Virus record (IMG/VR): IMGVR_UViG_3300032315_001604
Location: 1 to 64,000 of that record
Strand: one strand, 5' to 3'
Origin: a virus
DNA: 64,000 nucleotides
Shown here: piece by piece, positions 21,050 through 32,057 of the stretch
How the letters are laid out: each line of letters starts with the position of its first letter
How positions within the stretch are numbered: the stretch's first letter is position 1
Position numbers and translations under genes: made by a program
Notes under the pieces: generated by a model
Seen by the model: only the letters and a program-made list of their open reading frames with translations
What the model was told of the DNA's origin: nothing
The model's database searches: none

Positions 21050-21274
21050 ATGATTAATGTAGAAGTAAAAATATTCAAAAAAGGAGATCAGAAATTAGCT
21101 TTAGATAAAGCACTCCAAAGACTAAAAACAAAATTAACCAATGAAGGTGTAATGGATACAGTAAGAGCAAAAAGAGCTTTTGAAACACCCAAGGAAAAAA
21201 GAGAAAGAAAATTAAGAAACAGACTTAAATTAATTAAAAGTAAAAAATCCTTTGACAGAAAGAAAGATCTTTGA
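21050..21274 (+). CDS. rpsU: 30S ribosomal protein bS21 homolog
   Basis: LDKALQRLK...EG...VRAKRAFETPKEKRERK matches the bS21 pattern. Confidence 0.85.
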   Translation: MINVEVKIFKKGDQKLALDKALQRLKTKLTNEGVMDTVRAKRAFETPKEKRERKLRNRLKLIKSKKSFDRKKDL

Positions 21275-21280
21275 TAAAGT
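21252..21280 (+). promoter_or_regulatory. sigma70-type promoter inside the 3-prime end of rpsU
   Basis: TTGACA-17nt-TAAAGT; start site would fall just before the hairpin at 21289. Confidence 0.6.
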
Positions 21281-21286
21281 ATTAAT

Positions 21287-21490
21287 ACGATTCGGTAGCA
21301 GTCTATATCCGAATCAGAATAAGGGATCTTGCCTGTTAGTGTGTTGGTGAACTTATTCGCTGGATGAGTTAAGCTGCATAAAACTTTGACTCCATGCATT
21401 GATTAACACAGGCTTTGACGTAGATTATTCTGCGAACTCGCGGAGGCTTCGTTAAGGAAAGGACAATTTCTAGAGTAAAACCTTTCAAAA
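21287..21490 (+). ncRNA. Candidate structured ncRNA (~200 nt), unassigned
   Basis: GATTCGG/CCGAATC hairpin; CAGAATAA/TTATTCTG and GCCTGT/ACAGGC enclosing two inner hairpins; two further hairpins. Confidence 0.6.
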
Positions 21491-21500
21491 ACTAAATTTA

Positions 21501-21585
21501 GGTAGCGTACTCAAGTGGTTTACGAGAACTGTTTACTAAACAGTCGAACAGAAATGTTCCGTGAGTTCGAATCTCACCGCTACCA
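21501..21585 (+). tRNA. tRNA-Ser(ACT), long variable arm
   Basis: ACTGT-TTACTAA-ACAGT; G1,G2,U3 acceptor, G15:C48, GAACA-GAAA-TGTTC arm. Confidence 0.8.
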
Positions 21586-22066: not shown

Positions 22067-22273
22067 ATGGAAAATTGTTATTATACAAAAATTAAATTCA
22101 TGAATAGAAATTTTGGTATTTATATTCTTACCAAAGGAGAAAATGAATTTGATTTACAAATGGAAGTCAAAGGTTCTCTTTGTGGAGATGATTTTATTTT
22201 GTTAAGAAGATATCTTATAGAAGAAGGATACGTTGAAGAAGCAAGAGAATATAATAAAAATTTAATTGGGTAG
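22067..22273 (+). CDS. Hypothetical protein
   Basis: TTGACT-16nt-TAAAAT promoter with ATG 6 nt later. Confidence 0.55.
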   Translation: MENCYYTKIKFMNRNFGIYILTKGENEFDLQMEVKGSLCGDDFILLRRYLIEEGYVEEAREYNKNLIG

Positions 22274-28077: not shown

Positions 28078-28089
28078 GTTCTTTGAAAA
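28078..28089 (+). promoter_or_regulatory. boxA-like element
   Basis: GTTCTTTGAAAA right after the predicted start site. Confidence 0.6.
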
Positions 28090-28101
28090 ATTTAAAAAAG
28101 T

Positions 28102-28673
28102 TTAGTGCTGGATAGTCGGACCAGCACTAAAAATCCTGATGCGAAACCCATCAGGTCAGAGATAGGTTTAACCAATTAACAACTCTGCAATAAATGGATT
28201 GGTTTATAAAAAGGTATGCAACTCTACCTCTCTATATAACGGATACGTGTCCGTGTTCTGATCAGACATATAGAGTCCCATAGTGGATAGCTTGGAAGCG
28301 AAAAAAAAGAGTGTAGGTTCTGGGTAAACCAAAGCTATATAGGCTAAAACTCTTGTCCCGAAAGGGGTAAAGGTTCTGTGTTCTTCTGTTGTTGGCTTAT
28401 TGCCAACCAGAAGCCAGCAGTTTAAGGCGCAACTTAAACATCAGTCTGGTCCTGTTTGCGACAAAAACACCAATTTTAAGCCGAGAATCCTAACGAGATT
28501 CTAGTCAGAACCCACTGATGAGATGAAGCTGGTCGTTCCAGTAATAAGGGGGATGGTTGCCATGACCCGCATACGGTGTGCGTAAGTTGACTCGTCTGAA
28601 AAGATAGGGAGTCCGTGCTTGATTCCAGAAGGAAAAATCCGAAAGGAAAATGATGGTATGTAAAGACAGCCGA
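28102..28673 (+). ncRNA. Large structured ncRNA candidate (GOLLD/ROOL size class)
   Basis: No credible ORF; at least 10 hairpins incl. a perfect 10-bp stem and GNRA loops; ends a few nt before tRNA-Asn. Confidence 0.75.
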
Positions 28674-28679
28674 ATTTTT

Positions 28680-31964: not shown

Positions 31965-32057
31965 AGTCCTATAGTTTAACGGTAAAACAGCACTCTTATA
32001 CAGTGTAAGCTGGGCGACTCTGGCGTGATGAAGGTTCGAATCCTTCTAGGACTACCA
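31965..32057 (+). tRNA. tRNA-Ile(TAT) with long variable arm
   Basis: GCACT-CTTATAC-AGTGT; 23-nt variable region; A73 and CCA. Confidence 0.75.

Follow-up and report, generated by a model that had tools for sequence, protein, structure and literature searches.

ROOL and GOLLD are two enigmatic RNA classes of phage tRNA islands, both building RNA-only cages. They are encoded by phages and prophages, are often located in or beside tRNA islands, display multi-pseudoknot folds, and have no known protein partner or function; ROOL is ~580 nt long and GOLLD at least 800 nt, and GOLLD, with members from lake metagenomes, is conserved in its 3' part and variable in its 5' part. PMC12286853 reports self-assembly of both RNAs via symmetric kissing loops, seen by cryo-EM, with palindromes covarying at adjacent positions. 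OLE is a ~600-nt bacterial RNA of extremophile Firmicutes, which is membrane-associated via known protein partners, forms a homodimer via a palindromic loop switching between palindromic tetramers, and has a proposed link to ribosomal protein S21. T4 rnaC and rnaD (species 1 and 2 RNAs; 139 and 119 nt, respectively) are small, stable RNAs of unknown function, which are encoded within the phage tRNA cluster on the tRNA strand, directly adjoin a tRNA, and are presumably matured by tRNA-processing enzymes; rnaC has a tRNA-like T arm at its end. A purine-flanked hairpin loop drives RNA-RNA association in the HIV-1 dimerisation initiation site (self-complementary) and phi29 pRNA (inter-molecularly complementary). 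These two, a part of a viral genome and the RNA of a packaging motor, respectively, have known roles, and both are cited as cases in section 8 of PMC12286853.

The locus described here was found in a virus record of 195,163 bp (IMG/VR record IMGVR_UViG_3300032315_001604; 92% complete), whose first 64,000 nt are together referred to below as the window. The window was AT-rich and phage-like, and it contained 13 tRNA genes, a tmRNA, and a ribosomal protein S21 gene. The element was located between the S21 gene and a tRNA-Ser gene, with the S21 gene ending 9 nt upstream in the window as well as in the related contig L118 (Table 1). Judged from comparative analysis, window 21287-21496 (+) was a real element encoding a conserved RNA of an uncatalogued family; covariance model R1 found one copy in the whole 195-kb genome. 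No + strand ORF of at least 40 aa was found inside 21287-21496, and a small gene was not what the alignments displayed: there were 1-2-nt indels together with paired compensatory changes, and no conserved ORF. An earlier note, made from the window sequence, had proposed an unassigned structured RNA of ~200 nt at 21287-21490. This was borne out by the lack of an Rfam 15 match and by strong covariation in 22 homologs, and the start was kept; the end had been placed too early and was moved to ~21496, since pairing with the H2 loop extends into the tail at 21491-21494.

Table 1. Coordinates of the RNA, its predicted helices, and the adjoining features in the window
Feature	Position	Strand	Details
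Ribosomal protein S21 gene (rpsU)	21050-21274		Pfam E = 1.8e-10
Promoter, sigma-70-type (predicted)	21252-21280	+	Overlaps 3' end of S21 gene; 10/12 consensus matches, TG present
RNA, ~210 nt	21287-21496	+	Covariance model R1, 226 bits over 21283-21496; 22 full-length homologs
H1, 7 bp, 13-nt loop	21289-21315	+	21289-21295 with 21309-21315
H2, long hairpin	21317-21358	+	21317-21323 with 21352-21358; 21326-21328 with 21346-21348
H2 conserved 18-nt loop	21329-21345	+	Clamped by PK1-PK3 (predicted)
PK1	21331-21413	+	H2 loop 21331-21336 with 21408-21413; pseudoknot relative to H2
PK2	21337-21494	+	H2 loop 21337-21340 with 3' tail 21491-21494
PK3	21343-21407	+	H2 loop 21343-21345 with 21405-21407; directly beside PK1 3' strand
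H3	21359-21397	+	Outer 21359-21363 with 21392-21397 (one bulge); inner 21367-21370 with 21382-21385; conserved internal loops
H6 enclosing H4	21418-21452	+	H6 21418-21423 with 21447-21452; H4 21429-21434 with 21439-21444
H5, 6-bp stem	21457-21486	+	21457-21462 with 21481-21486; loop 18 nt, 21463-21480
Self-complementary hexamer in H5 loop	21469-21474	+	Centre of nearly invariant loop
tRNA-Ser, anticodon ACT	21501-21585	+	ARAGORN; Rfam tRNA 52.6 bits; adjoins RNA

Compared to ROOL and GOLLD, the RNA displayed the same phage encoding near tRNA islands (21 of the 22 full-length members), a multi-pseudoknot fold, and no known protein partner or function, and it resembled GOLLD in its lake-metagenome members and in the distribution of conservation between its two halves. 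Its H5 loop carried the same adjacent-position palindrome signature as those of ROOL and GOLLD, with assembly being predicted here. It differed from both in its length, with ~210 nt between promoter and tRNA harboring neither the large size nor the core specific to either family; there was no cmscan match to them, and the single palindromic loop would predict a dimer instead of an 8-mer or 14-mer cage. The comparison with OLE gave a shared switch between palindromic tetramers in the loop of a homodimer (predicted here), and an S21 gene abutted the RNA in the window, an adjacency not conserved across the family; OLE differed in length, bacterial origin, and membrane association via known protein partners, and no OLE model matched. 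The RNA shared with T4 rnaC and rnaD the small size, the position and strand within a phage tRNA cluster, and the direct contact with a tRNA, but these two were shorter, gave no R1 match with filters off, and in the case of rnaC ended in a T arm that the RNA did not contain. The HIV-1 site and pRNA had no homology to the RNA and, unlike them, the H5 loop was one element of a larger pseudoknotted RNA.

The main type of the family comprised 22 distinct full-length homologs (IMG/VR and JGI metagenome contigs), and there were ~15 more divergent ones; the sources were at least 13 IMG/VR contigs and ~30 metagenome contigs. The family was carried by large, uncultured phages (~195-211 kb) and, in freshwater metagenomes, by related phage contigs, and all contigs bearing full-length members looked phage-like. 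Loci reached via the neighbouring S21 and downstream proteins harbored the same element at 94, 83, 72, and 69% identity, and further IMG/VR members were recovered by a loop pattern, nhmmer, and R1. The first loop pattern gave 31 viral-contig matches, many of them by chance and scoring only over the pattern itself, while a second pattern gave 63 matches, three of which were new true members. The metagenome scan yielded 33 stretches, of which 30 were family members with E below 1e-5. One of nine matches in the genome contigs of 185,579 prokaryote species was true; the 7-kb contig harboring it had been binned to a Melainabacteria MAG. Four genomes of 195-211 kb with a completeness of 92-100%, one of which had terminal repeats, harbored exactly one copy each. 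The 3' half of the RNA was conserved and the 5' half more variable; in the divergent types, the 3' half was retained together with the long-range pairings. At L020:11689-11799, ~540 nt downstream of the first copy, there was a second one that had diverged strongly; it kept the H5 hairpin and tail with another loop palindrome, and the stretch included two masked bases.

The evidence for structure was comparative, not thermodynamic, because the single-sequence folding energy of the window RNA was unremarkable (z = -0.33, no better than shuffles). The structure-blind MAFFT alignment A5 (n=22) had 85% of its cells paired and double changes in 22 of 47 pairs, which was reached by none of 500 shuffles, and sliding the partners by 1-3 columns as a control left 29-44% paired. 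In alignment A6, which included the tertiary helices (n=22) and, being fitted to the model, leans towards it, 88% of cells were paired and 30 of 57 pairs doubly changed (0/500 shuffles). Several compensatory changes were common to one clade (L002, L014, and L040) and so count as few events. G-U pairs were frequent on the + strand (e.g., 14 at one H4 pair), and the strand of the RNA was thereby fixed as +.

The predicted hairpins H1-H6 were supported by compensatory changes, directly so in the case of H1, H3, H4, and H5: (i) H1 had 97% of cells paired and both-side changes in four of seven pairs; (ii) H2, which was misaligned by MAFFT and in part poorly paired in automatic alignments, was tested by cognate versus non-cognate strand binding and gave -12.7 versus -7.8 kcal/mol, with 13% of non-cognate partners equalling the cognate value, and its length in relatives was 10-14 bp; (iii) the outer helix of H3 was 100% paired, with one pair splitting into 12 G-C and 10 A-U, and the inner helix was 89% paired with two covarying pairs; (iv) H4 displayed G-C to C-G swaps in 10-11 sequences; (v) the H5 stem was 98% paired with double changes in five of six pairs; and (vi) H6, the least secure helix, had 58-63% of cells paired in automatic alignments owing to register shifts and was compensated on manual reading.

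The H2 loop was predicted to be the centre of three tertiary helices, each 100% paired on the structure-blind alignment (n=22) and each with compensatory changes. Numbered from element position 1 (window 21283), loop positions 49-54, 55-58, and 61-63 were matched with 126-131 (PK1), the 3' tail at 209-212 (PK2), and 123-125 (PK3), respectively. PK1 displayed three pair types, with G-C to U-A and C-G to U-A changes, and two further compensated variants in divergent members. PK2 changed from A-U to G-C in three main-type sequences, and the G-C version was found in most type B members. PK3, with one U-A to C-G change and eight G-U pairs, was the weakest of the three. A helix 21341-21345/21405-21409 in place of PK1 was rejected, because changes at 21342 were uncompensated. 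The comparative data showed the molecule, as modelled, to be a compact multi-pseudoknot in which the H2 loop contacts three distant segments by base pairing, the 3' tail being one of them.

Covariation among homologs had been named in the earlier note as a check, and it was strong in the 22 homologs; the fold drawn in the note was right in part. Its hairpin 21289-21315 corresponded to H1, its 6-bp helix 21331-21336/21408-21413 to PK1, and its two hairpins before the tRNA to H4 inside H6 and to H5; these and the promoter stood. Three further helices were not conserved: (i) the 8-bp closing helix 21315-21322/21425-21432 was perfect in the window, but across the 22 homologs its cognate strands bound at -8.7 versus -8.2 kcal/mol for non-cognate ones, and it competed with H2 and H4, both of which covaried; (ii) the inner hairpin 21350-21358/21363-21370 had few or no double changes and clashed with H2 and H3; and (iii) the 5-bp hairpin 21375-21379/21394-21398 had no double changes and clashed with the fully paired outer helix of H3. 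The pseudoknots had been missed.

The 18-nt H5 loop was almost invariant save for a central self-complementary stretch of 6-8 nt, and its flanks were nearly invariant purine runs. Among true members, the central tetramer was CTAG in 33 distinct contexts and CCGG in seven, counting two that were missed by the regular expression, and never a mixed form. The search pattern had admitted all four tetramer forms, and the only three mixed matches were low-scoring non-members; likewise, the three non-member stretches among the 33 of the metagenome scan were the only ones with a non-palindromic loop centre. On a tree from which the loop had been left out, the main type displayed at least four switches between CTAG and CCGG, each on a branch of its own and without intermediates, and the switch was seen again in divergent members. 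In 36 of 38 members, the positions flanking the tetramer were complementary or could form G-U; two divergent members had a mismatch adjoining the palindrome core. The loop self-duplex had a mean of -10.3 kcal/mol, compared to -3.7 for shuffled loops and -5.4 across the two palindrome types, and two members had a weak palindrome (-4.6 kcal/mol, no better than shuffles). The sole contig with two copies carried a different palindrome in each. No trans target for the H5 loop was found within the window.

Adjacent nucleotides cannot pair within one chain, and a hairpin loop of 0-2 nt is impossible. Because adjacent nucleotides of the H5 loop covaried nonetheless, the pairing is best placed between the H5 loops of two molecules. 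For OLE and GOLLD, this adjacent-nucleotide argument was made by Kretsch et al., with kissing loops seen by cryo-EM (PMC12286853, section 8). The H5 palindrome would pair with the same loop of a second molecule, and its self-complementarity probably lets two copies of the RNA associate as a symmetric kissing-loop homodimer. As a separate observation on these tetramers, CCGG occurred once in the 64-kb window versus ~36 expected (second-order model) and CTAG 75 times versus ~112; this depletion looks like restriction-site avoidance, which may be the reason for the CTAG form in the H5 loop of this phage.

A dimeric protein reading the symmetric site may be an alternative to loop-loop pairing, in which case the RNA would be a protein-binding scaffold or decoy, its palindromic H5 loop being read by a dimeric phage or host protein, with S21 as a candidate partner. 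We regard this as unlikely, if still the strongest of the rivals. The invariant purine runs would suit protein or tertiary contacts, the S21 gene lay immediately upstream in the window and L118 and ~600 nt upstream of the RNA in three relatives, and PMC12286853 reports a proposal that the OLE dimer holds S21. However, in two complete relatives the S21 gene and the RNA were 27-28 kb apart, and the adjacency was confined to the subclade of the window, as local synteny. A protein site should also keep its sequence, not swap both central bases together at least four times and still remain self-complementary. The fragmentary contigs compared for S21 co-occurrence came from records only 33-53% complete. 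Moreover, no conserved partner gene and no conserved RNA-binding protein gene emerged near the element across loci. The neighbouring genes were small, and searches of their proteins against Pfam and PHROGs gave weak or uninformative matches, among them DUF2087 and DUF2452 below cut-offs, DUF5661, and an outer-membrane beta-barrel match that was weak; an HNH endonuclease was a neighbour in one group of loci, and a 68-aa protein (window 22067-22273; weak DUF2087 match below cut-off) was located within 0.1-1.4 kb in 10 loci, in variable order.

The predicted promoter consisted of a -35 element at 21252-21257, a 17-nt spacer with TG at 21272-21273, and a -10 element at 21275-21280. Six promoter-like matches were found in the AT-rich stretch versus 8.5 expected, so the count alone was not above chance. 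The TTGACA-17-TAAAGT promoter of the earlier note nevertheless held up by position, which was conserved in the five closest homologs, and the L027 group and the divergent type B group harbored other, equivalent promoters with an unchanged distance to H1. Seven relatives had no promoter, and their RNA began 3-8 nt after the 3' end of a tRNA. The full-length members were all situated in tRNA arrays and shared the strand of the tRNAs, with a same-strand tRNA within 1.5 kb in 21 of the 22; several directly abutted one. Divergent members often had no tRNA nearby. The distance from the modelled end of the RNA to the next tRNA was 4 nt here (tRNA-Ser) and 8 nt in L025 (tRNA-Pro), and no terminator-like site followed the RNA.

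RNase P cleaves tRNA precursors at the 5' end during maturation. Transcription would start from the RNA's own sigma-70 promoter, with the start placed from the promoter at ~21287, or, in the promoterless relatives, would arrive by read-through from the upstream tRNA. The ends would be trimmed by tRNA-processing enzymes; the 3' end was placed from the tail pairing and from the expected RNase P cut at 21500/21501, before the tRNA starting at 21501, which would free it. Most simply, the RNA would be made with the tRNAs and excised by the enzymes that process them, a route also assumed for T4 RNAs C and D.

The same junctions with tRNAs, downstream in the window and L025 and upstream in the seven promoterless relatives, could also be read as a cis-acting leader or processing platform for tRNA transcripts, promoting maturation, stability, or antitermination of the adjacent tRNA, with no free RNA. 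A boxA-like word at 21266-21277 points the same way, but it lay between -35 and -10 and hence upstream of the predicted start. The downstream neighbour also varied (tRNA-Ser, tRNA-Pro, small ORFs, or, in the L027 group, a gene with its own promoter directly after the RNA), the divergent members often had no nearby tRNA, and the use of the 3' tail within the fold (PK2) argues for a self-contained molecule. We consider such a leader improbable. Nor did the RNA resemble a riboswitch, attenuator, or T-box, as the downstream gene varied and no terminator-like site came after it.

Further peculiarities were observed in the tRNA arrays. The tRNA-Ser with the unusual anticodon ACT (A34) was kept in L001, L002, L014, L040, L118, L031, L025, and L029, while L074 and L100 had a GCT tRNA at the equivalent place of the array. 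One subgroup carried a second conserved ~200-nt element directly after the RNA (L028:2086-2294), which was also found at equivalent places in L098, L074, L115, L047, L133, L029, and L020 and was absent from the window; its last ~70 nt matched the Rfam tRNA model (L028:2215-2285) and were not called by ARAGORN, which may make the element a non-canonical tRNA preceded by a long, conserved leader. ARAGORN called an unusually long tRNA-Ile (93 nt, anticodon TAT) at window 31965-32057, which may contain an insertion or intron, and a tRNA of TAT anticodon and similar length adjoined the RNA in L107. A group I intron (81.5 bits) was found directly beside the tmRNA gene of a related phage (L027:3844-4078), and a ~600-nt candidate ncRNA at window 28078-28675 lay beside tRNA-Asn, with no Rfam match at E<=10 and no similarity to R1.

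A ribozyme, i.e., a compact multi-pseudoknot catalyst that is self-cleaving or helps to process phage tRNA precursors, is very unlikely: its size, knotted architecture, and invariant junction nucleotides would be like those of mid-sized ribozymes, and full-length members lay beside RNAs needing end processing, but no Rfam ribozyme family matched, there was no conserved end-forming site besides the tRNA borders, and we know of no sequence resemblance to the RNase P catalytic core, none being apparent on inspection.

The search against known families was applied to all 4,227 families of Rfam 15, including tRNA, tmRNA, SRP, 6S, RNase P, riboswitches, ribozymes, GOLLD, ROOL, OLE, raiA, Drum, and HEARO. 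A known match would have removed the novelty claimed earlier for the RNA, which had been described as not a tRNA, tmRNA, or SRP by eye; cmscan found nothing over 21283-21496 at the gathering threshold, and with permissive filters on 801 nt (E<=10) the sole overlap was a 12-bit snoRNA noise match, with no GOLLD, ROOL, or other relevant family. Scanning 15 homolog loci with Rfam gave no family covering the element in any of them. BLAST against 50,697 GenBank phage records matched the flanking tRNAs but not the element, and on these records the family is carried by no cultured phage. No description of the RNA was found in the literature searched or in the text of a 2023 catalogue of ~10,000 viral candidate RNAs (PMC10690425). 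A relation to T4 rnaC or rnaD was rejected, as cmsearch with R1 (filters off) over the T4 tRNA region gave nothing at the coordinates of either. On these comparisons, the RNA family is new to Rfam, in a niche (phage tRNA islands) already known for ROOL and GOLLD. Membership in a known family, obscured by great divergence or truncation (the conserved 3' domain of GOLLD, ROOL, or T4 stable RNAs C/D), is the most improbable reading of all, with the shared habitat and context (lake metagenomes, phages, and tRNA islands) and the conserved 3' half beside a more variable 5' half in its favour, but with these searches empty for GOLLD, ROOL, rnaC, and rnaD, and with 210 nt amounting to about a quarter to a third of the GOLLD/ROOL length.

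Among the possible roles, a self-associating particle was ranked as the most likely, ahead of, in order, a protein scaffold or decoy, a cis-acting processing element, a ribozyme, and a missed member of a known family. We accordingly favour, with somewhat better than even confidence, a multi-pseudoknot ncRNA family of phage tRNA arrays, which would be expressed from its own promoter or by tRNA read-through, trimmed by tRNA enzymes, and joined through the H5 kissing loop into a homodimer, a ROOL/GOLLD-like particle. By analogy with ROOL and GOLLD, such a self-associating RNA particle would be made with the phage tRNAs during the takeover of translation. More tentatively, and with the balance slightly against it, this ~210-nt RNA, expressed with phage tRNAs and self-associating by a symmetric kissing loop, could be a small, independently evolved counterpart of the ROOL/GOLLD assemblies.

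The RNA adds a family to the RNA catalogues, in a stretch that gene callers leave blank in ~200-kb genomes. Its length of ~210 nt makes it a tractable model: synthesis in vitro is possible, the predicted dimer interface is testable by compensatory mutants, mutagenesis and structure determination would be easy, and the small triple-pseudoknot core is within reach of crystallography, cryo-EM, or chemical probing. As a third family in the niche of ROOL and GOLLD, unrelated to them and much smaller but with a matching comparative signature of intermolecular pairing, it suggests a shared theme of structured RNAs made with phage tRNAs and translation genes. If the predicted self-association is true, RNA-only quaternary structure would be recurrent in phage tRNA islands, not a curiosity of two giant RNAs.
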